A model generated the notes under the pieces. It saw only the letters and a list, made by a program, of their open reading frames with translations. It had not been told where the DNA came from and did no database searches. A DNA stretch of 63,988 nucleotides, the filler included, from Stramenopiles sp. TOSAG23-6 (Eukaryota), in assembly GCA_900128565.1 (NCBI GenBank). It is 7 parts of 7 records of this genome, joined end to end, with 100 filler letters (N's around TTAATTAATTAA, not from the genome) between each part and the next. Parts side by side here need not be neighbours in the genome. Positions count along the whole stretch, not along the records: positions 9,401 to 18,670 come from LT636385.1; positions 18,771 to 28,001 come from LT636386.1; positions 28,102 to 37,318 come from LT636387.1; positions 37,419 to 46,632 come from LT636388.1; positions 46,733 to 55,938 come from LT636389.1; positions 56,039 to 63,988 come from LT636492.1; 1 more part is not named here. One strand, written 5' to 3'. The position numbers and the translations under genes were made by a program. Positions 10,338 through 61,415 of the stretch are shown in pieces (position 1 is the stretch's first letter; the number at the start of each line of letters is the position of its first letter).

Positions 10338-10807
10338 TCATGATAAAATTTGACATTGAGCATGAATAATCACAAGCAAATTCAGCATGGCATTTATTTA
10401 ACCGGTAATATCTGATATAATTTGTATTTTCTGTTTGTACATTTTGTTTTGTTGGTTTTGTTGTATGAATTTGCTTAGGGTTAGGGTTTTTTCTTTCTAG
10501 TGTTTTCGTAGAAAAATATTTACTTTCAACAATCAGACAGTGAAGGTCTGTTGGACATGTTTTTTGTAAAAATATTTCAAAAAAAAAAAACTTAAATTTG
10601 TTAGGTACGAAATTTCGTACGAAAAAAAAATCAAATTTGAAAAAAAAAATAAAACATACAAGTCATTTCTTTAAGGCCTCCTTCATCGGCAAAAACAGTC
10701 ATTGTAAATCGTTTTGGTGAAAATACAGATAGTATATGCTTCAACATTGGTTGATAATTACGAATCTGTATATTTGTTTCAAAACTCGCATAACTACAAT
10801 GCGACTC
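10338..10807 (-). CDS. 3' part of S-adenosylmethionine decarboxylase; family intron 10557-10659
   Basis: ESHCSYASFETN...LSVFSPKRFTMTVF matches the eukaryotic AdoMetDC (HITPE)xxxSYASFETN...F.P..F motif. Confidence 0.7.
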
Positions 10808-10918
10808 ATGTATTTTGGAAAAATATTTCAAAAAAAAATCTAAAAACATTTGTTAGGTACAAAATTTCGTACGAAAAAAAAATTTCGATTTTTTTGTAAA
10901 AAAAAAAATAAAACATAC

Positions 10919-11765
10919 ATATGCCACCGTTCATTACAAAATGTAAATTGTTTTTAAATCGACCTATCTGCGAAGGTCTAAATGTAAAAAGGATATTTCT
11001 ACTTTGTAGAGGTTGCAATATGCCACGTTGCAGCTGACTCTGGAAATGGGCAACTTTATTCAAAGAGAATGCTATGGCTAAATTTTCAGAACTGTTTTTT
11101 ACTGTAATTTCGATATCACGACGATCACCAACAGAGCATTCCCCAAATCGTAAAAGTCTTTGCGATAATTCGACATTTGGCATTGTAGCTGTTCCATTTA
11201 ATTCCAATGGCATTTGTTGTTTTGTATCGCTACAAATAATTTCAAGTTGTTGAGAAAATGTTTTTGTACTAGAAAATTGTATGTATTTTGGAAAAATATT
11301 TAAAAAAAAAATTAAAATTTGTTAGGTACAAAATTTTTATAAAAAAAATATTTAGATAAAAAATTGAAAAAAAAAAACATACATATTTTGAGTGTTTCCC
11401 CCGCCCTTTTTTTTCATCACACTACTAAACCCCTTTGTAACGGGTGATAATTGAGGTTTAAAAGTACATGTTATTTTTAATTTTGAATATGGTTTTATCA
11501 TCCCTTCACGTGGCGAAACGGTTAATGCATGTATTTTGGAAAAATATTTCAAAAAAAAACTTAAAAAAATCGTTAGGTACAAAATTTCCTATAAAAAAAA
11601 ATTTTCGATTTTTTTGTAAAAAAAAAAAATAAAACATACATCGGGTAATTTTGGTGGTGCATTACTCTCATCATCAAACGTCGTTTCATCACTTTTTTCA
11701 TCTGCTTTTTTTATAACAAAAGAAATCGTTTGTGGACCATTATTGACCAACAATGACGTCACAGT
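10919..11765 (-). CDS. Internal fragment of a CFAP47/Hydin-like ASH (Ig-like) ciliary protein; family introns 11281-11382, 11529-11639
   Basis: LVNNGPQTISF, LTVSPREGMIKPYS...FKP, LRFGECSVGDRRDIEITVKN, GILQPLQS...FTFRPSQIG. Exons join in frame. Confidence 0.6.
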
Positions 11766-11883
11766 ACGTATTGTGAAAAAATATTTCAAAAAAAAATTCT
11801 AAAAAATTTGTTAGGTACGAAATTTCGTATAAAAAAAATTTAAAAAAAAAAAAAAAAAAATTAGAAATTCATATAAAACATAC

Positions 11884-12569
11884 ATTCTTTTTGCGGAGAC
11901 TTTTGCTAATGTAGTCGTATAGTGTGAAAGTGTGAAATTAAAAAAAAAATAAAATCGTTAGATACAAAATGTACTATGAAAAAAAATTGAAAAAAAAATT
12001 AGTTTTTTTTTTTTTTTTTTTCTTAGGTACAAAATTTCGTATAAAAAAAAAAAATTAAAATTCATGATAAAAACGTATGCCTTCGCTCGTCGTTTACGTA
12101 ATTGGTCCCAACTATTATTTTTAGAGCCATGATATTGATCTTTTCTCTCGCCAACACGATGAAGAAGATGAAGAAGTTCCTTGTTTCCTTGATTTAAAAT
12201 TTTTCTCTGAGCTCTTCCCTTAATTTCTTTATACAAATCATTGGAATGCAAAGCGCGACTTCGTTTTACGACTTTTTCATGTTCTCGCACTTCATGAGAC
12301 ACATAAGATTTCGCATTCATAATGAGTTCATCATGCATGGCGTGATGTGCCTTTATCCACATTCTCTGGGTCATATGAAGTTTAGGTCCTTTCAGGTCTA
12401 TTTCTTTATGAATCATTTTTGGTTTTCTTTGAGACTTTTGGACAGATCGAAGCATCGCCATCAAGTATTTTTCACCAGATTCTGGTTGTATTTGATTATC
12501 AAGTGTATCCCGTTCCGACACACGTCCCATGATTTCATCCCTTAGACTTTCGGTAGACCTTCGAGCCAT
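11884..12569 (-). CDS. Hypothetical basic protein (weak CFAP97/KIAA1430-like); family intron 11915-12078
   Basis: ORF 11958..12569 runs into an ATACGT-type family insert; RKILNQGNKELLHLLHRV segment. Confidence 0.4.
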
Positions 12570-12837
12570 TTTTAATGAATAAATACAAACGAATACAACG
12601 TAGTTTTTCTAAATACAAATATGTCGTTGTAGTAGAGACAAAAATAATTTTGTATTCTTTGACTTGATCGATTTTCAGAATGAAACTGTCAAAAAAAAAA
12701 AAAAAATTCCATAATTTTGGGTCCCGGGTATCTTTTTTTAGGTAATCATTTTCCTTCGAAGCGAAGCAAAAGCCGCAAGCGCGAAAAAAAAGACGCAAGT
12801 GTTCTCCCTCACTCATTTGTGTATTTCATGTTTTGAG

Positions 12838-14910: not shown

Positions 14911-15342
14911 ATTGTATCAACCCTAACCCAACCCTGGTATCAAATTAAAAAAAACATGATTTTTTTGGTTTTATAGTTTTATAGTTTTATGTTTTTTTGT
15001 GGTTTTATGGTTTTATGGTTTTATGTATGGTTAATTAATATGAAGTGAAAAAAAGCATGATTTTGTTTTATGGTTTTATGTATGGTTGATTAATATGAAG
15101 TGAAAAGAAAACGAAACGGAAAACTATCTTTTTTTTGAAAAGAAATTTCATTATCATTTTATGAATTAAATTTATTAGTTTGAAAATATTTTATTTTATT
15201 TTGGTGCACTACCGACAGATGTAGGGTTTTAAAGTTGAATTTAACTATTTTTTCATTGATTTTCAAACCAATTATTGTTTCTTGAGCTGCTGTAAAAGTA
15301 AATTGACTATCTCTGATGAATGTGAATTTTTTTGAGAAAACT

Positions 15343-17730: not shown

Positions 17731-17765
<35 letters not shown>

Positions 17766-26939: not shown

Positions 26940-27026
26940 ACGTATCGTGAAAAAATATTTCAAAAAAAAATTCGTTAGGTACGAAATTTCGTACGAAAAA
27001 AAATTAGAAATTCATATAAAACGCAC

Positions 27027-27636: not shown

Positions 27637-28175
27637 GTTTACTTAATACAATAACAAATGATACCACAAAGACGATAAATTATTCTAAAGTAATACAAAA
27701 CGAAACAAATGTATACGTATATCCCTAACTATTGTGTCACCAATGCGGATGTAATAGCTTTTTTGTAAGAAGTAAAAAAATAACAAAAGTTCTTTTTTAG
27801 AGGCCAATAATAATCCAGAGAGACCTGTCATAAAAAAAAAAAAAAAATGGAAGTCAAAATTTCTGTCAAGATTTCGTGTCGTCATCATCGTGATTGATTG
27901 CACATGGTGTTGTGGGATCTCACGTACTTTCCAACAACACCTTGTGTAAAAACACCTTGTGTAAAAACACCTTGTGTAAAAACACCATGTATTTCACCAA
28001 ANNNNNNNNNNNNNNNNNNNNNNNNNNNNNNNNNNNNNNNNNNNNTTAATTAATTAANNNNNNNNNNNNNNNNNNNNNNNNNNNNNNNNNNNNNNNNNNN
28101 NAATTTCTTTTTTTTTTCGTAGTAAATGTTGTACCTAACCAGTTTTTTTTTCATAAATATTTTTTCACAATACTT

Positions 28176-29695
28176 ACTTCAAAGATTGGTCGAGAAAGAG
28201 GAAGAACTCAGACAAAAAGTTGTTGACGAGGGACAAGGAGATGTATTACGACACTTCTTACAACGACAACATGGTCTACTAGAGCAAGAACAAGCCCTCC
28301 GTGGAGAGGTTGAAGCAAAGGAAAATGAATTAGCTAGCATTCGTGTACGTTTTCAAAATTGAATTTCAAATTTTTTTTTTTTAACGATTTTTTTTTTACC
28401 GAAAAAAAAAAATATTTTTCACAATACGATCTTCTTTATGTAACGTTGATATGTCAAATATGGATGAGAGTGAATTGGAACGAGCGAAGCTTTTTGTCGA
28501 GTGGAAAACAAATGTAAAAGCAAAACATGTACGTTTTTATCATGAATTTTAATTTTTTTTTCATACGAAATTTTGTACCTAAGATTTTTTTTTTTTTTTT
28601 TTTTTTTTNNNNNNNNNNNNNNNNNNNNNNNNNNNNNNNNNNNNNTCATGAATTTTAATTTTTTTTTACATGTATATTTTCATAATGAATTTCAAAATTT
28701 ATTTTTTCATAGAAAAGCATACAGCTTGTTGTACTTAACAAATTTCAAATTCAACAGATTTTTCACAACATATGAGTATTTACGTGAATTCCGTGATGAG
28801 CAGTACCGTATGTTAATGTCGATCAAGACTAGGCGAGATACGATGCATGTAGTGGCTGAGTTGGAGAAAAAATCTCAGCTTGATAGCGGAAAGAAAAAAT
28901 CTGAAGATTACAAATTAGAAATTGAAAAAGCAGAGCATCGTATAAAACTTTTAGAGCAGGGTATTCTAAAAGCAGGCACAGCTATGAAGGAGTTCCGGCG
29001 TGAATTTGAACAATTGCGGGTGGCGATCATGCTAGATAAGACAATCAAAAGTACACAAATGGCAGCTTTGGATGAGCACAAAAAACGTTTACTAAGAGCA
29101 GAAAAAATGTATGAAGAATGTACGTTTTCATCATGAATTTCAAAAAAAAAAAAGATCTACCAAATCCAAATGTTTTTTACCTAACGTTTTTTTTACAACA
29201 AAACAAATATATTTTTACAATACATTGGTTGATCAAGAACGAGAGCGCATAAGAAAAGAAGAAGCAGAAAAGTGGAAGCCACGTCTCAAAGCAGCAAAAG
29301 ATAAGATGGCATTGCACCTTCGACAGCAACAGGAAAAGATGAAAGCAAAGATTGCTCAGGTACGGGAAGCATTGGGAAATAGATATAAAGAGGGATTTGA
29401 TCCACTTTTACGGGAAGCTGAAGCTCGATATGCTGAAGAAGCTCAAGAAAGTGAAAGGATACGGCAACAAATCAAAGCTAAAGAGTCTGGTCTTCGAAAA
29501 GCGCAAAAAGAAATCCGTCGATTAGAAAAGAATTTGAAATTTAAAAAAGAGAATTTGCTTACGGAAGAGCAGCACAAGGAAATGAAATCTTTAAACACGG
29601 AACTAAGAAATCTCTGGGTTGAGTTAAAAACGGATCCAGAAGAAGTAGCTGGTTTTCTCGCTGATATGAAAGAGCTTACAAAAGCAGAATCGTAA
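28176..29695 (+). CDS. 3' part of a coiled-coil protein; family introns 28345-28429, 28529-~28773 (gapped), 29120-29225
   Basis: E/K/R-rich exons join in frame after removal of the family inserts. Confidence 0.7.
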
Positions 29696-29735
29696 ATTAT
29701 ACTATAAAAAATCAAAATTCGATTCATTTTTATTT

Positions 29736-31707
29736 TTAATTGTTTTGAATTGATATTTGGCCATTCATCAATATAGTACGTTTGACGAGTTCTTTTGTCA
29801 TTAAACAACGTTTCTCTCGATCACTTTTATATTCTTGTAAGTTTTGACCATATAACTTCATAGCTTCCTCTTCATCTATAGAATATTGTTGTTCATTCGT
29901 CGATATGGTATACACTAAACCACCAAACGATGCTTCGCATGTAATACTTTTTGATGGATCGTTTTGATCGACCAAAGTACCTTTAATTACAGCTTCTTGT
30001 AAGAATAATGTTAGTACAGATTTGTCATTCTTGATTCCAATGCATCGTAATAAACATTCATTAGATTTAAAGTCCTCTGCAATGACCAATGGTTTTGCAG
30101 AAGTAATAAAAGAATTTTGTGTTTTGTTTTCTAACCTCGCTTTCACTATTTTACATTCTTTCTGCAATATTCCAGAATTATCATGCTTCTTCACATATAA
30201 TTCACCTTCATCCCAAACAGACAATATAATGGATATTTCTGTGCTGTCGTTTTCTTGGATTGATGCAGATGATGTAGGTATTGAAGATATTACACATTCT
30301 TCTTCATCAAGATTATTCACAGTAATATCATCTACTTTCACATGTAATGTATCATTAGGATTAGTATCACTCATTTTGATAATTCGTGTTTCAAGTTTTG
30401 CTGGTAAAGATCTATCGATATTCCACACAATAAAAGGATTGTCAAATGCTATTTCTGGAACTGAATTTGTATGAATACTCATCCTTGCTTCCAAATCCTT
30501 TCCATATGCATTTTCAGCTTTTACACGGCTGCAAGAATTAACGTATTGTGAAAAAATATTTCAAAAAAAAGATCGTTAGGTACGAAATTTTGTATGAAAA
30601 AAACATTAAATTAGACATTCATCTAAAACATACACGAGGTTTCCATCCAACTGTGATAATGATGAAAGTCTCTGAATGATTCGAAATTGATAATCCGCGC
30701 ATTCACACACCGGATTTCCCGCTACAGAAAAGTTTTCAAGTGTTTTTATGTCACTGATATACTCCAATTGTTTAATGCCACAGATAAAATTGTCTTTTAG
30801 TGATACTGTATCGTGAAAAAATATTTTATATTTGAAAAAAAAAAAGTTAGGTATAAAATTTACTATAAAAAAAAAAAGTAGTAAAAAAATAATTTAAAAT
30901 TCATAATGAAAACAATACATTTTTTCAGAGCTTTACAATTTTTTAAATTTTCTATACTAGAAAAATTATTATTATCAAGACTACATGTGTGTAAAAATTG
31001 CAGTTTTGTTATTCCTTCACCTAATTCTGAAATATTATTATTATCCAATAAAAGTGTCCATATTGTGAAAAAATATTTTTTTTGCTTAAAAAAATCGTTA
31101 GGTACAAATTTTCGTATGAAATGTTTTTTTGGAAATTCATAAAAAAACGTACTCTTAATTGTATCGCGGAACCTTTGCCAATACCATCAGTCGATACAAT
31201 GTCGTTATACCCCAAATCCAGGTATTGCAAATGTTCCATTTCCTCTAAACCTGTAATATTACAGATATGGTTATTTCTCAGACAGAGTTTTACTAAAAAC
31301 TTTGTTTTTATTGCTTTAGGCATGACTTGGATATTATTATTATTAGCAAGAATGGTTTCTAGAGAAGCTCCACCAACGCATTCAGAGAGTCCATATATAG
31401 TATCTGGGCTATTTTCGAAAGGTTTTGCAAACACATTTAATGAATCCACGACATTATTTGAAATATTAAGAGATCGAAGTTTAGGGATTGAAGCTAAAGG
31501 AATCAAAGAATCTGCTGAGAGAACGTTTGACGAAAGGTCAAGAAATTGAAGGTGAATGCAATTTTGTAAAACTGCAACGTCTGATAAATTTTGATCAGTT
31601 GCTACAAACTCTAAATAAGCTGGAGTATTGCTAACAGGCGAACGACCTAGTCGGCGCATACCTTTAGCAAGATCTTCTTTTTGTAGTACATTCCCAGATT
31701 GATTCAT
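29736..31707 (-). CDS. Leucine-rich repeat protein, LRRC23/LRGUK-like; family introns 30541-30633, 30806-30918, 31058-31152
   Basis: LQFLDLSSN, LRSLNISNN, LQYLDLGYN; spliced QLR|TLLLDNN, LKK|LSLKDN and LDGNLV|N. Confidence 0.8.
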
Positions 31708-31952
31708 ATTGATTTAGCAGAAATGAGTGCGTAAATGAGATTAGATTCTTTGATCATGGAGAGGATTTAGCTTTTTGTTGTATTTGTTGTAACGGTCACA
31801 TTCATCGATGGGGGACCAGGTAACACAACAACAAAAGTGCTGTCATTTTCATTTTTTCAAAAACATCAATTTAATATTTTTTGACTCATTTCATTTGATA
31901 TATTTGGTGACAGAGACAAAGACTTTCATTTCCATCCTCTTCATTTAATAAT

Positions 31953-32577
31953 ATGGTTCAGACTCGTTCATTGTCTAAAGGCTCGAAGAAACTCAATCTT
32001 CGTACCCGTAAAGTCTCAAAAGGTTCACTCAAACCTATCCCTAAAACAGCAAAGAAGCCCAGTGAATGTGGTATGACTTCTCTATTGATGAGTACTGAAC
32101 TATATTTACGTATTCGGCAGAAATGCAACGGTAAAATACTTTGTAGTGTAGAACCATCTTTGCGGGATAAAAATAATAATCTTCGAGCTCTTACAAATGC
32201 TGAGTTGAACACTAAAGGTTTCATTGGTAAAAGCTTAACTATTGGTCCATCAACTGGTGTACACCGAAAAAAAGGTGTCACTGGGCACAAAATGACCTTC
32301 TCCAATAAAAGGGGCTATTTTACAATTGCTCAAATGTTAAAACGTATTTCAGATTTCGAATCAAAGGATCGTTTAAAGACAAGTGAAATTGGTGATAAAG
32401 GTGTGGACACCAGCAACATATTTCATATACGTTATCATCATGAATTTCAAATTTATTTGTTTTTCATACGAAATTTCGTAGCTAATATTTTTTTCTTTTT
32501 TGAATGTTTTTGCTTTACATAAATGCTTTGTTTGGAAGAAGAATATGTACTCATTGTCTTGGAGAGATAAAATGTAA
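31953..32577 (+). CDS. Hypothetical basic protein; family intron 32427-32520 (ATACGT...AT)
   Basis: The ORF runs into a family insert; the spliced end reads DTSNIFH|KCFVWKKNMYSLSWRDKM*. Confidence 0.6.
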
Positions 32578-32815
32578 AAGTAAGTTGTAATGTTTGAATT
32601 GTATCATAATGAGTGCCACATGGCACCAGTACAATAAAAAACTGAATCTATCAAAGTGAAATTGTGGAAAATATTTTTTTGTAAAAAAATCGTTAGGTAC
32701 AAAATTCCGTACGAAAAAAAACTTAAATTTGAAATTAATTGTGAAAACTCAAAAAAAACTCACGAAAACATTCTGAAAAACAATTCGAATACATTTATTG
32801 AATGTAAAAAAAAAC

Positions 32816-32962
32816 AAATGTATTGATTTATCCGAATGTAACATAAAATAAATGTATTGATTTATCCGAATATAAAATAAAATAAATGTATTGATTTATC
32901 CGAATATAAAATAAAATAAGTGTATTGATTTATCCGAATATAAAATCCGAATGTAAAATAAA
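32816..32962. repeat. ~33-bp tandem minisatellite (AAATGTATTGATTTATCCGAATATAAAATAAAAT), ~4 copies
   Basis: Seen directly between convergent genes. Confidence 0.85.
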
Positions 32963-32980
32963 ATGAAACCCTAGCCCTAA

Positions 32981-34694
32981 TTAGAAAACTTTGTGCTTTG
33001 CAAACCAGTTTTCTAAATTTCGTTTTCTTTCCCCTGCATTCACTAAACCTCGCTTTTTTAGTCTAGTATATGATGCATCTGCAATAATTCCATGAATTTC
33101 TTTTTCCCTGTTTTCTCTCTCCTTCTTTTGTACTTTTCGAAAAGGGCTTCTTTGAAGTAATCTTTCAGCTGAGCGAGCTAATTTAGGGAAAATAATTTTT
33201 TTGGCTTCTTTTCTTTTCTGCCTTTTTTCGTGTGCTACTGCCTCTAAGGCTTCTTCTTCACTGAATAATTACTGTTAAAAAATATTTCAAAAATTTGATT
33301 TTTTTTGTTAGGTACGAAATTTTCATAGTAAAAAACATACATTTAAAATCAAAGTGAACAACGTACAAGAATACTATGAAATCAAAATACGAAATGTCTC
33401 CATTAGCATTTGTCTGAATAGCATCAAATATGTATTTTGGAAAAATATTTCAAAAAAATCTAAAAAAATTGTTAGGTACAACATTTCGTACGAAAAAAAA
33501 AATCGAATTTGAAAAAAAATAAATCATACATCATTCTAATTTCTTCTTCAGTTGCGCAACAAAATTTTCGTAGAGCCTCACATGTATTATGAAAAAATAT
33601 TTTTCTTTTTTTTTAAGTAAACAAAGTTCGTTAGGTCAGGTGCAAAACTTTTTATGAAAAAAAAAATGTTGGTAAAAATTTTTTAAAATGAAAACAAAAC
33701 AAAATCGTTAGGTACAAAATTTCGTACGAAACAAAAATGTAGGTAAAAAACTCATTTTTTAAAACGTACAAAATTCTACTAAATGTACAGTACCAGATTG
33801 ATCTATGTCCTTATCTACAAAGTATGTATAAAAAACTTTTGCAGAAACATCGAGCGATTTTAGCTTTTCCTTTAGTATTGAAAACTTGTTTATTTCGTGT
33901 TTCTTGTGTTTTTCACTATGTACAAATAAAAACTCTTTAAACATTTCCAAATTCATAGTTGAAACTGCTGTGTCTACATTAGGGTTAGGGTTATTTTGTT
34001 GATTTTGTCGTCTTTTCCAAGCTTGGAGAATTGCCCGATGTTTTTTTTCCTCGTTCAGATTTCGTGTTACATGAATATTTGATCCTTGAGTATTCGTATT
34101 ATTTAAAGTATTTGCTTGTGGAATATGTAGAGACCTGAACTTTGACACAACGTTTTCATCTTTATTGGAACGAAAAACATTAGGGTTAGGGTTGTCATTA
34201 GGGTTAGGGTTAAATATATTTGATACTGTCGCTGCTGCTTTTGATCGAACTTTCTTCAATTCCGCGTTTGTCCTTCCTGGTGATTGATCTAATATAGCTT
34301 TCATCGATTGTTTAAATGTCTTTCTTTTTAAGGGTGGTCTAGTTTCTATTCCAATGCTATTTTCTATTCCAAAACGAAATGGACGATAAGTATGGTTGGA
34401 AACTGTTTTTTGCTCATCTGGTCTGAAAAACTCTTGCGGATTTACACCCCATATATTTTGTTTTCTTTGTTCATTTGATTGGGCGGTTGGATCTAAGCTA
34501 TCGGTAAGGAATGTTTTGGGGATATATTCCACAGCTGTTGGAGTAATATGCACTGCTGTTGGTGTTTTTCTAGTCTTTGCGAAGAAAGTTGACAAGTTGT
34601 TTGGCATTTTTTGCTTCTTTGAAACACTTTCAGGAAGTAAGTCACTTTTTAGTTCTTGGTAGGTTGCCTGACTAGAATTATTGCCGAGGTTCAT
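32981..34694 (-). CDS. EF-hand protein; family introns 33267-33366, 33430-33529, 33582-33769
   Basis: DIDQSGTVHLVEF|CEAL, EIRM|IFDAIQTNANGDISYFDFIVF|LFSEEE. Confidence 0.8.
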
Positions 34695-35065
34695 TTTATA
34701 AGCTATTATTTCATCGAATATAATTTTACTTTACCGTGAAGTTGATGCTATAATACAATAAATATCAAAACTTCTTCAGTTGTAAGTCGTTATAAGTTCT
34801 GCCTGTACTAAGTTGTGTTGACTTATGTAACTGTCTCGATTGGAGTCGTAGTAGTGTCACGTCACGCACGCTCAGTTAACGTTCTCAGTTTGCTGCTGTC
34901 ATAAGAAAAAAATCGCGAAAAAGCAGAAAAATAATAAAAAATCGCGAAAAAGCCCGCAAAACTTTTTAAACTTTGCGTCATCATCATAAAATACAAGGCT
35001 GTTTCATCGACGTAAAAAAGTATTAAATTTACTCCTCCTAATAGATTTAGCCAAAAATGACATAG

Positions 35066-37230
35066 ATGCAGTCATCTGCATTTGCTAGGAGCCTCAACTA
35101 CAACTTACTTCATGCTTGCTCGGAAAGTTACTACTCTTCTTCACCTCGAGAGTCAAATATGATATCAAGTTCCCCTGAAAGGAGTAGATTGACGACACCA
35201 CCAAAAGTGTATGCTCCATATCCGTCTTCCAACCAAATTGATACAAACGATCATAACAATGGAAAAGTATCCACTAATTCTGAGCAGATAAATCCAAAAC
35301 ACGCGCCTTTCCAAATTCCGTTGAGTGCTATTAAATCTAGTGAAAATGGAGTTGTAATAAATAAAAATAATGAGACATCAAACTCTGTGATACATACTCT
35401 CGGTGTTGAGTTCGTTGCTCTTTGCGGTTCTTCAAATGAAAGTTCTTCTGGGCGACTCAACAAGGTTTTTAATGATATGTGTTCTAGATTGGTTCTTAGG
35501 GGTAACTCACCGGCAAAATCAACTTTAATGGTATCAACTTTGGAACTAGAAAAAAGTGGTTGGTTAATTGGCTTATTTGACGCAGTTATTAAACATAGTA
35601 AAGTTATCCACCGCAGTAACTCAATTGATAACAAAATGAATTTGCTAATAATTGTTCTTGCACGATGTGCGCAAATTAGTCATACTGTAGCTGAGCTAAT
35701 TTGTATATATCCCAACTCTAAAGATTTAGTTCGTGTTTTATTACGGCTACTTGCAAAAGTCGAAAAAGGCGAAAAGGGAACGACTACTGATATGAACACT
35801 CAGACTGTAGCCTGCGCCCTCGCTACGTTAATGACTTTACGACTTGATAGTAATGTGGAAGCTCGTTTGTTTGCTGATGCGAATGTTCTGCAGATGTGGC
35901 ATCTTGTGTATAATATATTTAAACAGAGAATTTCTACTGACTTGTTTAGTGATCCCTATACACCTAACCCTAATATATTTAACTCTAACGCGATGAAAAA
36001 TTATAGAGTTTTTTATGTCAAACTCATTAGTGCTTCTATGGTATGCAAGATGATTAAAAATCCACGTTTACTTCAGAGTTTAGAAAACTTGTCGTATATA
36101 GAAAAATTCACGACGCATCTACTTCATAGTATTAGCCAATATAAAGGTATAAAAAAAGATATTGAAAATCAAAAACGTGTGAATTATTTAGGCATGAAAT
36201 TTGGTACGGATTCAATTGATAATAAGATAACTGTCTCCGATAGAGTTGAAAGTGTTCGTTGGTTAATTGCACTTCCAAATATTTTATTACTGGGCGCAAT
36301 GATTACAATTTCTCCAAAAATTACACGACATGCATTGAAACGTTGGAAAGGTGTAGATCTGAATCAAAAAGAAAATCTATGTGACTCTTTATTGTCAGTT
36401 GCTGCTGGTGCAGATACTGCAAGTGTTGTGTTTATGTCAATTACTGTCTTTACTAGTGTTGGAACCACCGATAGAGCTGATACGAATTCATGTACTTTCT
36501 TCGAAATTGAATTTTTTACTTATATATATATATATATATATATGTGTGTACGAAAGTTTGTACCTAACAATTTTATTTTTACTATTTCTTCACGATGCAT
36601 CTGTATGGAAAGAATCGGCTATTTTATTGTCATCTGAAGCACTTTTGATTATTAGATCATTGTTTATATACGATTGTGTACCTCTTTCTTTAGGTATGGA
36701 ATCTAATACGAAATTATCATCTGAAAGTTCTACAACTAAAAAAGTCAATGATTGGAATTTATGTACAAATACAAATATGACTGGAAATGGGAATTTGTCG
36801 GGCCAACTTTCTAATAGAATGTTTAAAAATCGCGATATGCTGAGAAATTACTCTTGTATTGGGGATGCAGGTAGACATTTGGAATCATCAAAAAAAAGTA
36901 ATAGAAATATTTACAATAATGGGAAAATGAATAATAAAAAATGGTCTGAATCTTTTGCTAAAAAACTCGCTATAGCCATAGCTGGTATAAAAATGGTGAC
37001 AAATACAAATGAAAACCAACATCATCATCAACAACAACAAGCAAATACATCGGGGGTTTTAGATACGGAAACAAAAATGGAATTAAATGGATTGGTAAAT
37101 ATCTCTGTACTTGCCAGGCAGCTACAGACATTTGGTATTTTATTAGTCTCTTGTTTTCAAATTCCTCGAGTGAATTCCCTAATATCATATCACATTTCCC
37201 CTAACATCATCAGTGGTGTAATTAAAAACT
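35066..37230 (+). CDS. Hypothetical protein, 3' truncated; family introns 36492-36600 and from 37231
   Basis: ORFs 35066..36637 and 36381..37277 are joined in frame by removing the insert. Confidence 0.7.
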
Positions 37231-37470
37231 GTATGAATGTTTTATTTTTTTTCAAATTCGAACTTTTTTTTTTATAAAAATTTTGTACCTAACGATTTTT
37301 TTTTGAAATATTTTTCCANNNNNNNNNNNNNNNNNNNNNNNNNNNNNNNNNNNNNNNNNNNNTTAATTAATTAANNNNNNNNNNNNNNNNNNNNNNNNNN
37401 NNNNNNNNNNNNNNNNNNGTACCTAACAATTTTTTTTAGATTTTTTTTGAAATATTTTTCCAAAATACAT

Positions 37471-39797
37471 GGAACTTATAAGGAAGGTGATTTCTCATTG
37501 ATTCAATTGCATCATTCGGCATCTACTGACACGAAATCATCCACTCTACATTCAAATATTTCAATTGATCGTTCACCATCTTTGACTACAACATCAGAAC
37601 ATAAAAATGTATGTTTTATTTTTTTTTTCGTATGAATTTTTTTTTCGTACGAAATTTTGTACCTAACAATTTTAAGTTTTTTTTTTTTGAAATATTTTTC
37701 CAAAATATATGTAATATTGAAAAGAAATGTATCAAGATCACCTTTATCAACTGTGTGTCCTAATAATAGTATACGACAAGATATGCGTACCCCTAACCAT
37801 AATAAAAATAACAACCCTAACCCTAAACATCTTAGAGTCCAAGCAGAGAAAACAGATTTTTCTCCTATAAATACTCCACAAGTGAATTATTCTAGCCCAA
37901 ACGACTCGTCTATAGAAAAAACATCGCATAAGAAATTAGTATTTGTCGAAAATGCCTCGGAATTTTCTGAAGGAAGAAAAATAAAAACATTAAAAGACGT
38001 CTGGCCTTTACCATCGATGGGATGTACATTTCAATTTCGAATGTTTTTTTTTTTGGTACGAAATTTTGTACCTAACAAAATTTTAATTTTTTTTTTGAAA
38101 TATTTTTTTTTTCGTATGAAATTTTGTACCTAACAAACTTTAATTTTTTTTAAATATTCATTTACAATACTTGGTCACAAGAAACAATTGATGAAATTGA
38201 ACGTTGTACGTTTTCATTATGAATTTCATTTTTTTTTTTTTTTTGGTTTTCGTACGAAATTTTNTACCTAACAAATTTCGAATTTAATTTGTTTTCTAAT
38301 ACATGTATTTCTGGTATTTGGACTGGTCAAAGTTTGAGGTCAACGGAAGCAAATGCAACGAATTGGAATGATATTGCCTTTCGATTTACAGTGGATAATC
38401 CTATGACGGGTACATCATCAATGACTGGCGAGGGTGTGTCATTGTGGAGAGGTCAAAAAATAGATTTTGATATTATTGGTAGAAGCATGTATGTTTTATT
38501 TTTTTTCAATTTCGAATTTATTTTTCGTATGAAATTTTGTACCTAACAATTTTTTTTGAAATTTTTTTTTCAAATTTTTTTCCAAAATACATACTAGACA
38601 CAAATATATTGACGCTACAGAAGCAACACAAAGGTAAGTTTAATAATGTCATAAAATATACAGCTGCATTTGAGTTTCAAGTATTTAACATTGATGAATC
38701 AATTCATCCAGGAGAAAATATGAAAACTGGAATTGGTTGCAGGATTCGGGGTTTTTATGTACGTTTTTATTATGAATTTCAAATTTATTAATTTTTTCAT
38801 ACGAAATTTTGTACCTGAACAATTTTTTTTCATTTNTTTTACTAAAAACAAAATATTTTTCACACTACATGGAGCTGATCAAAAAGGTTATTTATATTTG
38901 CAAAAAGAAAAAAANGCNACTGCGAATGTNGATAACTTGCTGGCAGGGTTAACACCAATGACATCAAAGAGGTCAAGAGAGAGTTTCTCATTTTCATCTG
39001 GAAAAATAACAACTCTTAAAAGTCGTTCAAGAAGTGTCTTACATAGTATTATTAATGATTCTGATAAAAAGGAATGCAAAAGATCAAATGTGGATGACCA
39101 AAATTTTGATGATTCTGAAAATATTGTTATGAGTAATCACCACAATGATGAAGTGGCTAGTACTAGTACTAATATTTCTAGTAGAAAACGGAAAAGAAGT
39201 AGTAGAGATAGTAGATTATCACACTATAAGAATTTTTTAGCAGGAATTATAGTTAGTGGAATTATTGGGCCTCAAGCTGAAGATGTACGTTTTCATCATG
39301 AATTTCAATTTTTTTTTTTCATACGAAATTTCATACCTAACAAGTATTTTTTTAACTAAAAAAAAATCTATTTTTTTACAATACATGCTTTACGTAAATT
39401 CCGACAAACAAATAATATTAAAGATGTAGAACATAATAAAGCATTAGAATCTATGGGACTCTCAAAATCTCAGTTTAATATGTATGTTTTATTTTTTTTT
39501 TGTATGATTTTTTTTCGTACGAAATTTTGTACCTAACGATTTTTGTTTTGAAATATTTTTCCAAAATACATGATGCATACTTCATTGAATAATGGTAATC
39601 CTATTTCCTCTGATAGAAATAGTTCGAATGATATATGTAAAATATGTATGGAAAAACCTATTAACTCTGTTATTTTAAATTGTATGCATTTTGCTGTGTG
39701 TTTGACGTGTGGAGACAAATTATTAGAAACAACAACACCTAAATGTCCTTTTTGTCGGCAGAATATTTCCAAGATTCAGCCAGTGTTTCGTTCATAA
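37471..39797 (+). CDS. 3' part of a C3HC4 RING-finger protein; seven family introns (37609-37710, 38024-38172, 38206-38304, 38489-38592, 38759-38870, 39285-39386, 39482-39571)
   Basis: All exons join in one frame under the same boundary rule; C-terminal CKICMEKPINSVILNCMHFAVCLTCG...CPFCR. Confidence 0.8.
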
Positions 39798-44783: not shown

Positions 44784-46632
44784 TTACCACAGAGGTTTTT
44801 GTCTTATTTGCTCTGATTCAGACGCATCATATGAATCATTACGACATGGATCATAAGATGATGATATTGACCGATCTCGATCCCGACTAGGAAAGGCAGA
44901 TAAAGATGAAGTTAATACAGGTGGCAATCCACCATTACTAGCATCGAAAGCATTAGCATCATTTAACCCAGTCGAATTAGAATGCAAGGCTGGGGGTTGT
45001 AATAGTCCTGTAACATTGGAAGTTTCATTCACTGGTTTCGGTTTCAGTCCGTCGACGGCATGCTGCTGAACAGATTTAGCTTCATCTAACATGTGTTCAT
45101 TGGTCAGCAAATCAATGAAGGGTTGTAAAAGCCCATCAATAATTTCTACACCAGCTCCATCGCGAGATGATGATGTTCGTGGGGTCATCCGAGCCATATG
45201 ACCAAATATTTCATATGCATCCGACGCTCTTTGGCTTTCAACTAGACGATTTAATAGCATATTGAAGGCCATGCCATCAGGTAATAAGCCTTTTTTTACC
45301 ATCATTAAGAAAATTTCCTTGGCCTTAATCACGAATCGATCGTCGCGACTGTGATGACTAAAGGACTGAATCAAACATGAATAAGCACGAACGTCAGGTT
45401 GAAAGCCGGATGACGTCATTGTGTCGAAAACTCCTTCTGCTTCTTCAACTAAACTATCTTGTACCAATCCATGAATGAGTGAATTTAAACTGACAATATC
45501 TGGTTGTACACCAGCTTCAGTCATGGATAAATACACTGCATGTGCTTCAGCTGACATTCCTTTTTGTTTGGATAAGCCTTGAATGAGAGTATTGACGGTT
45601 ACAAATTCTGGTTGCATACCTACATCTAACATGTTTCTAAATAAATTCATTGCTTCACCAAATTGATTGTTATGAGCCATTGCAAACATTAGAGAGTTGT
45701 ATGAAATCATATTAGGTCGAAGGCCAGCCATCTGCATTGCGTTGAGTACTTCTTTAGCCTCTAAAGCAAGTCCATTTTGAGCCATTACGTGTATTAAAGA
45801 GTTATAAGTGATTTCATCTGGTTTCAAATTGGATCTAACCATCGAGTCAAAAAAGTTCTTTCGCCTCTGACACCATACCTTTATGTGCCATTGCATTGAG
45901 TAGAGTATTATACGTAATAAGATCAGGACGGAGATCGAGGTCAGATTCCATCATTGCGTCAAACACTCCTTTCGCTTCTGCCGCGAGACCTTTTTGGGNN
46001 NNNNNNNNNNNNNNNNNNNNNNNNNNNNNNNNNNNNNNNNNNNNNNNNNNNNNNNNNNNNNNNNNNNNNNNNNNNNNNNNNNNNNNNNNNNNNNNNNNNN
46101 NNNNNNNNNNNNNNNNNNNNNNNNNNNNNNNNNNNNNNNNNNNNNNNNNNNNNNNNNNNNNNNNNNNNNNNNNNNNNNNNNNTGAGCCATCGCATTGACT
46201 AAAGACGAATATGCTATAATATTTGGCCGAATACCTGATGATAACATTTGTTGAAACACAGCCTCTGCTGCACGTCCCATTTTCTTTTGTGCCATTGCAT
46301 GCATTAAGGACGTATACGCAACAATATCTGGACGATAACCTGCAGCTTGCATCTCATCAAATATGTATTTTGGAAAAATATTTCAAAAACAATNNNNNNN
46401 NNNNNNNNNNNNNNNNNNNNNTGAGCCATCGCATTGACTAAAGACGAATATGCTATAATATTTGGCCGAATACCTGATGATAACATTTGTTGAAACACAG
46501 CCTCTGCTGCACGTCCCATTTTCTTTTGTGCCATTGCATGCATTAAGGACGTATACGCAACAATATCTGGACGATAACCTGCAGCTTGCATCTCATCAAA
46601 TATGTATTTTGGAAAAATATTTCAAAAACAAT
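44784..46632 (-). CDS. Pentatricopeptide repeat protein, 5' truncated, gapped
   Basis: Repeated 35-aa PD..TYNSLI units. There is a homopolymer frameshift at ~45850 and an assembly duplicate (46184-46393 = 46423-46632). Confidence 0.85.
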
Positions 46633-46804
46633 NNNNNNNNNNNNNNNNNNNNNNNNNNNNNNNNNNNNNNNNNNNNTTAATTAATTAANNNNNNNNNNNN
46701 NNNNNNNNNNNNNNNNNNNNNNNNNNNNNNNNTTTTTTTTTTTATAAAAATTTTGTACCTAACAAATTTTCAAAAAAAAATTGAAATATTTTTCCAAAAT
46801 ACGT

Positions 46805-47426
46805 TATCATATTGTCTCAGTGTGTCAGGATAATATATTGAGATGTTATTCTGGTGATGAACTTCGACAAATTGGCGGTCATTCAAAAAAAATTGTACGT
46901 GTTCACTTTTCACCATTAAGTTCAAAGTTGTATCACTATATATGAATTTCAAAGGCAATTTTAAATTTTGTATATAGATATTTTTAAATTTTGTACCTAA
47001 CGAATTTTTTTGAACCAAAAAAACAAAAAAAACAAAAAATATTTTTCACAAAATATGTGAAACCGTTTTATGCACCACGACATGATTGTCGAACAGGGAG
47101 ATGGTTGACAAAGTTCCAAGCCCGTTGGGATCCACAATCTCCTGATTGTTTTATTATTGGAAGTATGAGTCAACCAATACGTTTTCATCATGAATTTTTT
47201 TTTTTTTTTTGTAGTAATTTTTGTACCTAACAAAAAAAAACAATTTTTCAAATATTTTTTCTCAGTGTCTAGGTGTGTTGAAATTTTCAATGTTCGATGT
47301 AAACAAAAGCAAATGCGTATTCGAGATGACTACGTCGCATCTGTTCAATCACTTACTGAATATCATTCTTCTAGAAATATATTAGCGACAGCTAATTCAT
47401 CTGGTCGTGTTTATATATGGAAGTAA
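46805..47426 (+). CDS. 3' part of WD40 protein, WDR76/Cmr1-like; family introns 46895-47056, 47177-47270
   Basis: HDCRTGRWLTKFQARWDP...IGSMSQP|RCVEIF...LATANSSGRVYIW. Confidence 0.8.
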
Positions 47427-55299: not shown

Positions 55300-55770
55300 T
55301 TACTCACTAATGGTGCCCCATAATACTTCTGAAGCCAAATCTGTAATACTTGAACCTACATGTATTGTGAAAAAAAAATGTAGTCAAAATTTGTTACGTA
55401 CGGAATTTCGTACGAAAAAAAGATAAATTTGAAATTCAATTTTGAAATTCAATTTTGAAAACGTACTAACTTATGGCTATTTTTCGTGAGGTGAATGCCA
55501 TCCGTTCCATTTTCTACATCCTTTACATCATCTAATACAAGGCATTTGCAAATGTATTTTGGAAAAATATTTCAAAAAAATTCTAAAAAATTTGTTAGGT
55601 ACAAAATTTCGTACGAAAAAAAAATCGATTTTTTCGTTAAAAAAAAAAATAAAACATACATATTAGCATCTGTACTAAATTCATCCAGGGTATACACAAT
55701 CTCTCCAGTACCCGGTACTGTAGTTTGAATATGACAATATCCATAAAATGTACCTGACCACAAGCATTGT
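55300..55770 (-). CDS. 3' part of SGNH/GDSL-like hydrolase; family introns 55360-55466, 55552-55659; probable 1-nt homopolymer frameshift
   Basis: DGIHLT followed, after a frame change in an A-run, by NSHKL|VGSSI, resembling SGNH block V. Confidence 0.45.
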
Positions 55771-56038: not shown

Positions 56039-59000
56039 TACCATTTGGATAAGCAGCTGTAACAACACCTGGATACCAATTATTTCCATCCGTGCCACTC
56101 CCATACATTGCTGTTATTGTTTGACCGATTGTAAATGACATAGAAGGTATAGTTTCTGGTTGTGTTGGTTGCTCTGCTTTTTGTACATCCTCCTTTGATT
56201 GTGCTGTAGACTGTGGTTGAGGTGTAGACTCTGATTGAGGTGCATTTGGTGCTTCGCGCTCGCGAATATATTGTGATTGCATACCGGCCTCGAAGTCACC
56301 ATCCTCGTATCGTATATCGAATGTACCATTTGGATAAGCAGCTGTAACAACACCTGGATACCAATTATTTCCATCCGTACCACTCCCATACATTGCTAAT
56401 ATTGGCTTTCCAATGAGAGCATTCATCTTTGCTTCAGTTTGAGCTCTTTCCAATGCTTCTCTTTCTATTGCTTCTCTTTCTATTGCTTCTCTTTCTTCCC
56501 TTAGTACTCTATCCGCTTCAGCTTTAGCTTCTCTTTGTATAGCTTCTATCTCTGCAGCTTCTTTGGCTGCTCTTTCCTCCTCAGCTTTTGCTATAGCTTC
56601 TTTTTCAGCGGCTTCCCTTGCTATTTTTTCTGCATTTGCTCTAGCTTCTCTTTCCTTGATTACTTTTGAATGTAAAACTTGCATTCTTTTTGCTTTAGAC
56701 GTATCAACATATTTATCATACTCATCTTTAGTCATATCATCTAAATCTATAGCAACTATTAAAGTTTCTGATGAACTTATTCTTCTTGTCGTTCTCCATC
56801 CTTCTTTTAGATTTCTTTTGGGTTTCCAGCTCATTAGAGGCAATTTGTTATTTGGTGCAAGTGATGGAAATAATGACGACTGTTGTACAGGTTGAACACT
56901 TTGCGTAGTTGGTTCTAATGCCGCCGAAGATGAGTCTGGACTACTTGGCTTATTTTCACTGGATTGTCGCTCTTCTGATTTATTACTTGCTGAATCTGAA
57001 ATTTTTTCCTCATTGTCGGCTTCATTGGTTTTACCACTTTCTGTGTGTACTTTCTCCTTCTTTCTAAAACTGAAGAAACTTTTTTTTCCCTTTTGTCTTC
57101 GACGTTCAGGTTTATTTACTTCTTTGTGGATTTCATTTTGTGTTCCATCTGTATCATTATGGCTTTTACAATTTGACTGAGATAAATCATTTCTTCTTTG
57201 ATTTTCTCCTATTTTATCTTGTGTGTCATTCGAATTTAATATATTCTCAGCAGCTACATTTTCTATTTTTTGACTTTTTGTGTCATTTGAAATTAATATA
57301 TTTTCAGCAGCTACATTTTCTATTCTTTGAGCTTTAAGTAAAGGTGCAGCGCTTTCTGTCCGAACAACATCAGGTACGTTTATACTAAATTGTGTTTGAG
57401 CAATGTTAACATCGGGTACATTTATAATTGTCTTTGGTACTATGGTATCAGGTATAGATTTTGACTGTGGCGTAGGCTGTATTTCAGGAACACCCATAGC
57501 TACCGGGTCAACATCATTTACATTACTATTTTCTGTGCTTTGTACTTCACCAAGATCTGCTACATCATTCATTTTATTCTCTTTTGATGGGTCCACGATA
57601 TCAATTTCATTTTTGTTCAAACTTCTTCTTTCATGTTTATGTTTCTTTTTTTTGTCGCTTTTGAAAAATCCTAAAAAACCTTTTCTTGTTTTCTTTTTCT
57701 TTTTCATTCTCTTCGTTTTTGTTGAAGTTTGTTTTTCAATATTATCTACACTTTGCGTACTTGGGTATTCAGGAGACAGTTCTGTTTCATTCTTTAGATT
57801 TTCAGTTTCCCCAATAGAAATTGTATTTGTCTCATCATTCTTGACATTTTCATTATCTACGTTTACTTTACCATCAGTATCATTTGATTCAGATATTTTT
57901 TCTTCAGTGTTTTTATTATCCTTTTCAATTTTGTTCTCTTCAGAGATTTTTACGGTATTAGTTTCATTATGACTTATTTTGTCACCTATTTTGTTAGTCG
58001 CTTCTAATGTTAAATTTGTTTCAGCACTAGCTATACTTGGTGCTGATTCATCTTTCTCTTTCTCTTTCTCTTTGGATACTATATTTTCATCTAGGGTCTT
58101 TTCAATTTCTGTAGTTTCATGCTCTTCATTCAAAATTGGTTCGATAATTTCTACTTTCGGTCGATGAATTTCACTTTGTATACTTGATTGATCAATTTTA
58201 TCTTGAATATCTTTCTCTATCCTATCCGGCATTATTTCATCATTACTTGGGTCGATCGAAACCTGTTTTCCATTTTCTTGTAATAGTTCAGATGCATTCG
58301 CCAATATCTCATTAGTAGTTGGAGTACCATTACTATTGTCATCTCGATGTATAGGTGTTGCGGTGGTTTGATTAACGATTTTTGGGATTTCAGATGACTT
58401 TGGACTAATTTGTGAACTTTCTTCAATTTGATTACTTTGTTTTGCTGATAGATTATTGACACATTGCTTGTTATTACCCATGATTGTATTTTCAGATGTT
58501 TCATTTTGAGCAAGATTATTATTAGCAATATCATTTTTTGTTGGTGTATTATTTTTTTCTGTGAACAAAGGCTCACCTTGCTCTTCTGTTTTCGAATTTT
58601 TCGAATTTTCAAAACTATTTATTTCGTTGTCTTTTATTTTTTCATCTGGAGTGTACGCCGGATCTATACTAAATTTATCCGATTTATTCTCTAATTTGCT
58701 TCGCATTATTTTCGCTGCTTCGCTTTGAGATTCTTTCATCATATCTTTTTTTGTTTTTTTTGGCGAAAACATTTCAATATCATGAGGAGACATTCCTAGT
58801 GTACTAGCGGATACTGAATCTATATTATCTACGGGGTTTGCTGCATTATTATTATTCACATGTTTTACTCTCTTCGACTTTTTTTTCTTTTGCTTTCTTC
58901 TAGTTTTTGGTCTGTTTTTACCTAATTTAGCTGTTTTGGGTATAGCTGCAGTCTTTGGCCTTTGTCTTTTACTCTTTGGTGTTTTTTTATCTATTTTAGT

Positions 59001-59924
59001 TTTAGCAGTCTTTGGACGCGTCTTCAAATTATTTTTAGCAGTCTTTGGACGCGTTTTCAAAGTTTTTGGTGATTTCGATTTTGTTTTAGAGACATTATTT
59101 GATCTATTCTTTTTTATTTTTCTTAAAGATTTTGTAAGTTTTTTTTCCAAATTGTACACAATTCTTGCAGTGTGAATAGAACCTACACCCGAAGCGGTAT
59201 TATTTGTGGTTTGATACTTTGACTCTGAACTTTTCTCACTATTTCGTGTTTTGGAATCTGATTTACTCGATGCAGCTGCAGTAGCACGGGCAGATGCCCC
59301 AGCTGCAGCCCGCTGTGCGTCTGAAAGTTCAACTTTATCCGTTTTCCAATTTGTTTCCCCTGGGATCTTACTCGAACTATCTTTGTCAGTTTTTGGCACT
59401 GACTTAATGGTTGTCTCAATTGTCATTGGTCGTGCCATGAGACGTTCATGCGCTGCAGATACTTTTTGAAACATGGCCTTTGCTTCTTCTGGATTCTCTG
59501 GATTTTTATCCGGATGGTACTTTCGTGCTAATGTTCGATATCGCGCACGGATTTCTTCATCGCTCAGTGCTCCAAAACCGGGTAACTCAAGTAACTGACG
59601 AGCTTCTATTTCAGTCATTAATGTTGGCCTAGATTGTTTACCTCCCAGATTACCAGGAGATTTTCTATTTCTTGTATTTTGAGAATATTTAGAACCAATT
59701 GGCGAATTCTCAGGACGTTTCGGTCTCGCCGAGTAAGGCCGTTTCGGTCTGGCTGAGTATGGTCTATTGTGTTTTATCCCCATCTTTTGATCCAGGTGTT
59801 GCATGAAGGCATCCGCAGCGCTGCTCACATTTCGTTTTCTTTCGACAAAACCCTTTAACTTACGTTTAGTTTGCATCTTCTTTGGTCTAACCTTCCTCTT
59901 TCTCAATATCTTTTTCTTCGTCAT
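56039..59924 (-). CDS. Large J-domain protein with low-complexity middle and tandem Tudor/Agenet-like repeats, 3' truncated
   Basis: J domain EIRARYRTLARKYHPDKNP, RPKTA repeats, and a duplicated AMYGSGTDGNNWYPGVVTAAYPNG(TFDIRYEDGD). Confidence 0.85.
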
Positions 59925-60473
59925 TGTCTAACTCGAGTCAAGTCTTTTGTCCCAAGACTCTTTTCCCTTGTTTTGTTATTCCTATTAACCCTAACCCTAA
60001 CTCAAACCTAAGACAAACCTAAGACAGTTGGAGTAACTCTAACCCTAGCAGTTATGACCAAACTGGTTGAGACAATAGACGGATAATAGCAATTGATGTT
60101 TTGTTTTCTATATTTCAAGTATTTGTATTGTGGTGCTTCCCAACGCTCGTTAATTGTATGCCATGGTTAAGCGTGAATGTACTACTATACTATACGTATA
60201 ACTAAATGTTATTGTTAGAATCAGTTACAACTTCAAACGTAAAAAAAAAACGGCTTGATAACCCTAACCCTAACCTTAAAAGGTTTAGGTAAGGAATTTA
60301 GTACGGAATTTCATACTAGTAAGTCAGTTTTAGCTATACGGTTACACAAAAAAAGCGTGACATCCCCCCCCACTTTGAAATTAGCAGTATCAAACAAGCT
60401 GAAGCAACTTAATATTTACGATAACTACATTTAGAGATACTCGAGATTCTAATTTATTCATTTCATAGCTTCG

Positions 60474-61415
60474 ATGACAGAAAAATGCTTTTTATCTGAA
60501 TCATCTGTAGAACGTATCTATGGAGAACTCGAACGTTTAGATGCGTCATCTTCTGTCAGCAGCATTGCGTACCTAACACTATATAAAATATTTTTATCAA
60601 ACATCACTTATTTGAATCATTTCTAAAACTAAAATATTGAAGCATTTTGAAATATTACACAAAATATAGACAACTTGCAACGGACTTAAACAGACCTAAC
60701 TATCAATATGATATGCGTGATAGCATTTATGTAGACTATACCTATTACAATATAGGGTTTTGCAGAGAATCACAATTTTCAATAAAAAAAGCAATGACAT
60801 TGCTTAATTTACTAGAAAGAGTATTTTTACACGCCATTGAAACAGAATTTGGAGATATACAGACAACTTATGAAGTATTACAAAAAGGGATACTCGATCA
60901 TGTAGCAAAAACAGAGTCAAACAAGTCTATTGCTGAGAGCGAAACAACTGAACAACACGAAAAACACGAAAAACACGAAAGTGTTTCGTTTTCAGTGAGT
61001 GAAATCAAAAATCTCACAGAGTATTTTGCTAATACATTTGCACGATACTTCCCAGCATATAAGCAAGTGTTTACAAAACGAAGATATGAAACACAATCTG
61101 TTTTATCAGTTTCTTGTACATTGTTTTCAGCATTCAATTATTTCTTTTTTTTTACGCGTAAAAAAAAATTCCATACCTAACATTTGTTTTTTTGAAATAT
61201 TTTTTCACAATATATGCGAAACTCCTTTACGCCAACCATGTTTGATGGAAGGTCGACTAAAAGGTGAAGGAAAACCTGATGGAACAAATTTGGTAAAAAC
61301 AGTTGAAAAGGTTAAAAAAGATATTGAGCCAAATGTGAGCACTATTGATAATGTTAGCACTATTGATGATGTCAACACTCAAGAAGAAAATACAGAAGAT
61401 GTGAATTCGTCGTAA
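60474..61415 (+). CDS. Flagellar CLAMP/C1a-32 (CFAP119-like) protein; canonical intron 60569-60642, family intron 61116-61215
   Basis: YNIGFCRESQFSIKK...FSVSEIKNLTEYFANTFARYFPAYKQVF. Confidence 0.65.

Follow-up and report, generated by a model that had tools for sequence, protein, structure and literature searches.

Introner-like elements and their flanking dinucleotides

We analysed an AT-rich window of 63,988 nt, filler included, from Stramenopiles sp. TOSAG23-6 (GCA_900128565.1; assembly of 21.1 Mb in 6,236 contigs), the genes of which are interrupted by copies of one short intron element with a dinucleotide at each side. The two copies of this dinucleotide, which are usually but not always identical, are the subject of this study. 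The organism is taken to be a marine stramenopile of group MAST-3, because that label is carried by the best homologue found for one of the window proteins.

The element has the form GTAYGTTTT...AAATTTYGTACCTAAC...CAMAATAC (the middle part is also written TACCTAAC), with a median length of 100 nt and a CCTAAC branch motif ~40 nt upstream of the intron end. Agreement between its 5′ end, GTAYGTTTT, and its reverse-complemented 3′ end (GTATTTTGG/GTATTGTGA) was limited to GTA(T) and a run of T. The 17-nt core occurs in 5,479 exact copies in the 21.1 Mb, against 0 for the reversed control, and many similar copies lie at unrelated gene positions, as is typical of introners. Taking out the element together with one dinucleotide in silico gave long open frames again, for example in genes for a kinase, an LRR protein (three introns) and a RING-like protein (seven introns).

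In the window, 49 candidate starts yielded 36 junctions fixed by boundary or motif and by frame; the other 13 were cut by a gap or an end, lacked an evident open reading frame (ORF) around them, were alternative starts or were inconsistent in frame. An independent set was drawn from 365,905 bases of other contigs, using weight matrices that excluded both dinucleotides and frames set with the junction masked. Automatic calling gave 160 junctions (window included); the frame filter retained 134, and 114 of these come from outside the window. The finder is biased to consensus-like copies, and old introns are under-sampled.

Among the resulting 150 frame-checked junctions, the donor was GT in 133 and the exon ended in AT in 98. 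Eight acceptor dinucleotides were found: AT (120), GT (10), TT (7), AG (6), AC (3), GA (2), GG (1) and CT (1). The AG acceptor of U2-type introns is thus present at 6/150 junctions, and AG occurs inside the last 20 nt of 6/150 elements. The element itself ends in AC in 116 cases and not in AC in 34. The 17 non-GT donors were AT (9), GC (5) and GA (3), located in the window at 12078, 32427 and 47177 and at other loci, and 10 of the 17 have mismatched repeats.

The two copies were unequal at 14 of the 36 window junctions, all frame-verified, instead of the 11 counted in the initial annotation. They are listed below, with the repeat given as exon copy/intron-end copy.

10557..10659, minus strand: GT..AT intron, 3′ part of the AdoMet decarboxylase gene; TT/AT; ACT/ACA, synonymous
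11766..11883, minus strand: GT..GT intron; AT/GT; non-synonymous, N/S
11915..12078, minus strand: AT..GA intron with two branch motifs; GC/GA; non-synonymous, A/D
28345..28429, plus strand: GT..GA intron; GT/GA; CGT/CGA, synonymous
30806..30918, minus strand: GT..AG intron, LRR gene; AT/AG; non-synonymous, L/V
31058..31152, minus strand: GT..GG intron, LRR gene; GA/GG; AGA/AGG, synonymous
33582..33769, minus strand: GT..AT intron; TT/AT; non-synonymous, F/L; not named before
38024..38172, plus strand: GT..TT intron; AT/TT; GGA/GGT, synonymous
38206..38304, plus strand: GT..AT intron; TT/AT; CGT/CGA, synonymous
46895..47056, plus strand: GT..AT intron; TT/AT; non-synonymous, I/N; not named before
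47177..47270, plus strand: AT..CT intron with degenerate end, WD40 gene; CA/CT; CCA/CCT, synonymous
55360..55466, minus strand: GT..AT intron; TA/AT, both bases differing; non-synonymous, L/Y; not named before
61116..61215, plus strand: GT..AT intron; TT/AT; TCT/TCA, synonymous
63592..63782, plus strand: GT..AG intron across an N gap, DAO-family gene; AT/AG; non-synonymous, L/V

Two further copies were left out of the counts.

10808..10918, minus strand: AT/AT copy between an Ig-like (Hydin/CFAP65/ASH-type) exon and an AdoMet decarboxylase exon, out of frame
26940..27026, minus strand: flanks in frame only if 2 extra bases are retained, read as GT..AC or with a GC donor 2 nt inward

Exon 10661-10807, upstream of the 10557 junction, matches AdoMet decarboxylase PF01536 in the same frame, and the 47177 junction is bridged by the homologue P0121 (83% identity), which reads QPRCVE. 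At L018:7996-8089, as at 27026, the frame needs the end moved by 2 nt; here an extra AT lies within the element, followed by a GT/GT repeat. Single copies can therefore depart from the general rule. Two other window copies have noteworthy ends. In 33267-33366 (minus strand), a CAG is found 5 nt before the end that restores the frame; cutting there breaks the frame, and the likely acceptor is TT (TT/TT repeat). In 9984-10073 (plus strand), the intron end is ambiguous, and a possible AT/AG reading would add a non-synonymous mismatch, TAT/TAG.

Duplication, and proposed exon drift and acceptor change

We compared the observed mismatches with a null model in which each dinucleotide pair was put in three frames, weighted by the phases of matched junctions. 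All seven codon pairs that had been named as synonymous (10557, 28345, 31058, 38024, 38206, 47177 and 61116) were found in open frame, and both AT/AG cases (30806 and 63592) were present. Synonymous mismatches made up 7/14 in the window versus 2.97 expected if codon position is ignored (P=0.007), in the same set that gave the observation. The excess held up in the larger sample of 366 kb, where 29/114 junctions were mismatched and 8/29 of the mismatches (28%) were synonymous versus 2.96 expected (P=0.001; with uniform phases, 3.5 expected, P=0.005). Pooling both sets gave 15/43 synonymous (35%) versus 5.9 expected, and 28/43 non-synonymous. The synonymous excess is therefore real, yet the earlier statement that mismatches are mostly synonymous fails.

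The matched junctions bear on the origin of the repeat. The two copies matched in a dinucleotide other than AT at 16/150 junctions (GT 8, TT 6, AG 2), versus a permutation mean of 1.75 and a maximum of 8 in 20,000 permutations. Because these matches lie so far above the permutation level, we conclude that insertion duplicates two bases, as in the target-site duplications of introners; no empty-site allele was seen. When copies were ranked by their likeness to another copy, the dinucleotides matched in 45/50 of the most-alike third and in 26/50 of the least-alike third. Double mismatches numbered 0 and 8 in these two thirds, and all 11 of them fall in the older two thirds.

It could be argued instead that there is no duplication, with the exon-end AT (read by U1) and the acceptor AT being independent signals like those of the AG-GT...AG arrangement in ordinary introns. 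The exonic AT is indeed complemented by the U1 described below, and the two dinucleotides are largely uncoupled in older copies. However, independence does not produce the observed number of GT/GT, TT/TT and AG/AG junctions, half of which lie in the youngest third of copies. Independent signals may fit old introns but not insertion, and we consider this account very improbable.

Separating the mismatches by the copy that reads AT revealed which copy behaves as coding sequence. Where the downstream copy was AT and the upstream one deviated by a single base, 8/19 mismatches were synonymous versus 2.2 expected (P=0.0001), and 5/14 were so outside the window (P=0.004). Where the upstream copy was AT and the downstream one deviated by a single base, the figure was 2/7 versus 1.5 expected (P=0.49). 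At junctions with acceptor AT, the exon −2 base was not A at 11/34 third-codon-position sites versus 6/74 others (P=0.003). The upstream copy thus acts as coding sequence, and the downstream copy does not.

Exon drift, however, covers only the synonymous cases; the rest requires a second process, a change of the acceptor to AT. Mismatches with AT downstream outnumbered those with AT upstream by 29 to 7 (P=0.0003). A non-synonymous difference separates the copies in 21 of the 29 with acceptor AT and a different exon copy; at two, AT in the exon would have created a stop codon and so cannot have stood there. We infer that the intron end has often moved to AT after insertion, via selection or conversion among copies, two routes that these data do not separate. 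The initial annotation had proposed that the intron end is ancestral while the exon copy drifts at third positions; the drift is borne out, whereas the intron end often appears not to be ancestral. It had also read the AG copies as converting to canonical acceptors. AG accounts for 3/7 departures from AT (P=0.10), and the net change runs toward AT. AG is tolerated as an acceptor, but these figures do not suggest that acceptors are reverting to the canonical dinucleotide.

A different concern is that many mismatches are artefacts, arising from base errors or from the fusion of different genes during assembly at near-identical intron copies, and that the pattern is noise. Three copies do join exons of unrelated genes, from different Pfam families and out of frame: window 10808-10918, L005:7422-7534 (Mo25 to DUF382/PSP) and L032:6523-6614 (S1_RRP5 to carnitine acyltransferase). 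These joins, which were left out of the counts, are probably misassemblies at near-identical copies, or possibly real recombination between copies. By frame arithmetic, about half as many in-frame joins would get through the filter. But misjoins take no account of codon position and would weaken a synonymous excess rather than create one; mismatches are more frequent in diverged copies, which are harder to misjoin; and several mismatched junctions have the same family or homologue on both sides. Noise of this kind is a very unlikely source of the pattern. Assembly redundancy also shows in repeated stretches next to gaps, in pairs of contigs that are almost identical and in one contig inverted on itself (window 46300-46633; G000 C13/C14; L005). 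Separately, telomere-like CCCTAA/TTAGGG runs, read as NPNP or RVRV, were seen inside coding exons (window 34180-34212, 37815-37830 and others).

The splice register and the U1 snRNA

Mismatched junctions had been suggested as a means to fix the true cut site, and the non-synonymous ones already point to it in the DNA sequence. At two junctions an in-frame stop codon appears if the downstream copy is read: TGG/TGA in a MatE gene and TAT/TAA in an amino-acid transporter gene. Each of these junctions has 149 open codons on either side and a Pfam match running across it, and the upstream copy gives a stop at 0/43 mismatched junctions. Conserved residues point the same way. In a SET-domain gene (AT/AG), the upstream copy encodes the His of ADxxNH, aligned with His in Rubisco LSMT and SETD3, and the downstream copy encodes Gln. 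In XPC (TC/AT), the upstream copy encodes Val where XPC has Ile, and the downstream copy Asp.

Several other comparisons with homologues were uninformative on the register. At 63592 (DAO-family), the position varies among 119 homologues, and the best match is a gene model rather than a transcript. The alignments shown for a USP junction were TPR repeats, those for the LRR junction at 30806 begin at least one residue too late, those for the EF-hand junction at 33769 end before the junction, and the region of 46895 has diverged in P0121. No homologue was found for the Ig-like exon, and the first LRR exon, used as the query in a metagenome scan, yielded no relative.

We also identified spliceosomal small nuclear RNA (snRNA) genes outside the window. 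At L022:9-645 (G000:C1146), U5, U2, U1 and U4 form a head-to-tail array on the same strand, separated by 2 to 23 nt; the U6 gene lies outside this cluster. The U2 branch-pairing region, the U5 loop and the U6 ACAGAGA equal the Rfam consensus. The U1 5′ end, in contrast, reads AAACGUACAUG versus AUACUUACCUG in Rfam, with three 5′ positions changed, and is the exact complement of exonic CAU followed at the cut by GUACGUUU. In the U1 search, 41 of 253 candidates were scored and one U1 was found, in two identical places on duplicate-looking contigs. The canonical U1 5′ 12-mer occurred 3 times versus 2 in the control, which is chance level, and the one copy inspected was not in a U1 gene.

In U1 geometry, C8 and A7 lie opposite +1 and +2, which places the AT before the element at exon positions −2 and −1. 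Over the 150 junctions, mean pairing with the altered U1 was 9.5/11 in the GT register, compared with 7.0 for the Rfam sequence and 4.5 when the cut was moved 2 nt upstream. The donor has G at +5 in 93% and T at +6 in 98%, and these bases occupy U1-pairing positions in the GT register only. Complementarity to the predicted U1 therefore favours a GT..NN register, and donors that pair with U1, together with a CCTAAC branch motif and a canonical U2, are characteristic of U2-type introns.

Two alternative registers have to be set against this evidence. The initial annotation had offered splicing in both registers, GT..NN and NN..AC, with both copies under coding constraint. The genuine synonymous excess speaks for it, as does the fact that 7/15 synonymous cases fall outside the type in which the exon deviates and the intron end is AT; moreover, at 27026 removal of the element alone (GT..AC) restores the frame, so that AC is perhaps usable as an acceptor. 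Tandem-site splicing would need both products to be tolerated, however, and here 28/43 mismatches change the protein, 11 differ in both bases, and the downstream copy brings two stops and the loss of the SET His, while U1 pairing falls by about half in the shifted register. General dual-register splicing is thus very unlikely, although low-level use at single loci may occur.

The second alternative is a single NN..AC register with the downstream copy exonic, as in AT-AC introns. The frequent AC end of the element and the frequent AT before it do resemble AT..AC termini. But the stops and conserved residues contradict this register, the synonymous excess would lie on the wrong side, 34/150 elements lack the AC end, and +5G and +6T fit U1 only in the GT register. 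The U12 donor consensus is RTATCCTT, whereas the donor here is GTAYGTTTT, and the register evidence is for GT..NN; U11/U12 genes were not searched for. We regard an NN..AC register as extremely unlikely.

A proposed GT-AT introner system and its relatives

We propose that a 2-nt insertion duplication underlies the repeat, that the exon copy then drifts silently and that the intron copy, as the acceptor, is pulled toward AT; we put the probability of this reading at roughly 0.8. An introner-like element would insert with a 2-nt target-site duplication, usually AT, giving NN-element-NN. U1 would pair with a stretch covering the first NN and the GT of the element, U2 would bind CCTAAC, and the second step would follow after the second NN. 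The major spliceosome would then cut GT..NN introns, mostly GT..AT, leaving the upstream copy in the mRNA and using the downstream copy as acceptor. The exon copy would be constrained by the protein and, at its last base, probably also by pairing with the altered U1; its −2 base would be free where it is a third codon position, giving synonymous mismatches. The intron copy would answer to acceptor preference alone and be drawn to AT at any codon, giving the non-synonymous and double mismatches of older copies. A mixture of both processes may account for the share of about one third synonymous. The earlier interpretation, taken as a whole, is partly supported.

A number of observations weigh against this proposal. 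Where neither copy is AT, 5/7 mismatches are synonymous versus 2.2 expected (P=0.03), in a class where the direction of change is not polarisable, and two synonymous cases with AT upstream (38024 and L004) are unexplained by exon drift from AT. The −2 phase test is borderline outside the window alone (7/27 vs 5/56, P=0.051). Frame-blind expectation gives 3.3 stops downstream and 1.7 upstream, so that the two stops are a matter of logic for those two loci and a weak statistic. Codon usage favours neither copy (20 vs 23). A few in-frame chimeras may persist among the mismatches and dilute the synonymous share. The U1 found scores 54 bits, below the Rfam gathering cut-off of 69.5, and its expression is putative. 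No autonomous element with the ends of the intron element was found. Finally, none of the RNA contigs over 28102-37319, from four metatranscriptome runs (three samples) chosen via an intronless gene (shares 0.18 to 0.27), crosses an intron. Because depth in these contigs is heaped on intron repeats, exon cover is patchy and contigs also lie between genes, we draw no inference on the register from them.

We further considered whether splicing has been re-tuned to the AT target of a transposon, with U1 reading the exonic AU (C9A) as well as the element's donor, and with selection driving acceptors to AT instead of AG. The AG-GT...AG arrangement would then have become AT-GT...AT, and the last exon base would be held by U1 even where its change is silent. 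In keeping with such a hold, silent change at −1 (NAT to NAC) was seen at 0/38 sites versus 8/31 for silent change at −2, a rough comparison of two-fold with mostly four-fold sites. We give this idea even odds.

In Fritillaria borealis and F. pellucida, non-canonical introns derived from miniature inverted-repeat transposable elements commonly have AT at the 3′ end, and a YAY before the donor is repeated at the acceptor (PMC13326754, PMC11282704). The introns described here are alike in their frequent AT acceptor, in the short pre-donor motif repeated at the acceptor (NT/AT here) and in their apparent use of the major spliceosome. They differ in having GT donors for the most part, a 2-nt repeat and an altered U1 sequence; in F. 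borealis, both U1 versions have identical 5′ ends, and N6-methyladenosine (m6A) and a duplicated U2AF were invoked (PMC13326754). Our comparison covers the snRNAs.

Introners of Micromonas (IE1), Aureococcus, Polarella and Symbiodinium recruit one splice site from the target-site duplication (PMC11282704; bioRxiv 10.1101/2020.10.14.339549), and recruited sites are later converted with bias, as from GA to GC donors in Symbiodinium (bioRxiv 10.1101/2020.10.14.339549). The family studied here likewise is multi-copy, carries one site, takes the other from the duplication and shows a later bias, in this case to AT acceptors. However, those introners recruit AG acceptors or GT/GC/GA donors, and eight acceptor dinucleotides, mostly AT, are found here. 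Co-evolved U1 snRNAs have been described in Mastigamoeba balamuthi and Entamoeba (bioRxiv 10.1101/2022.06.08.495308). With its arm ACGUAC, which complements GUACGU donors, the U1 found here matches the Mastigamoeba variant; its further changes U2A and C9A lengthen the pairing so that it reaches +7 on one side and the exonic −1 U on the other, whereas no extended pairing is reported in the available part of that study (bioRxiv 10.1101/2022.06.08.495308).

The element may derive from a DNA transposon. ISL2EU transposons of the PHIS superfamily make a 2-nt AT duplication within the target A-AT-T (PMC4482050), and the AT duplication here is similar. In contrast to ISL2EU, the −3 position is unbiased (A 27%), some duplications are GT or TT, and we found no linked transposase; we thus saw neither the A-AT-T target nor a partner transposase with the same ends that would mark a non-autonomous member. 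The genome has five matches to DDE_Tnp_4 transposases, and the two loci examined had no intron-like termini and no link to the introns. At L044:767-3410 (G000:C2432), convergent ORFs encode a 490-aa DDE_Tnp_4 transposase and a 327-aa partner, present at four near-identical contig positions with no intron-like termini seen. We take this two-ORF layout to be Harbinger-like.

In the literature searched, which left most subscription papers outside it, there was no paper on such introns in MAST-3 or on introners in marine stramenopiles. The synonymous pattern is in itself ordinary, being expected from purifying selection on the exonic duplicate; it is a by-product of a GT-AT introner system, to which this analysis adds two points, the match to U1 and the direction in which acceptors change. 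Silent mismatches can nevertheless serve, from DNA alone, as a polarity test of which copy is exonic and of the direction of acceptor evolution (to AT, not AG), with the caution that an assembly which joins unrelated genes at intron copies can fake junction oddities. Taken together, the direction of acceptor change and a U1 that complements the exonic AT make it possible to test whether a spliceosome has adapted to an element that creates introns, which would be a second route in addition to the one through U2AF and m6A described in Fritillaria.

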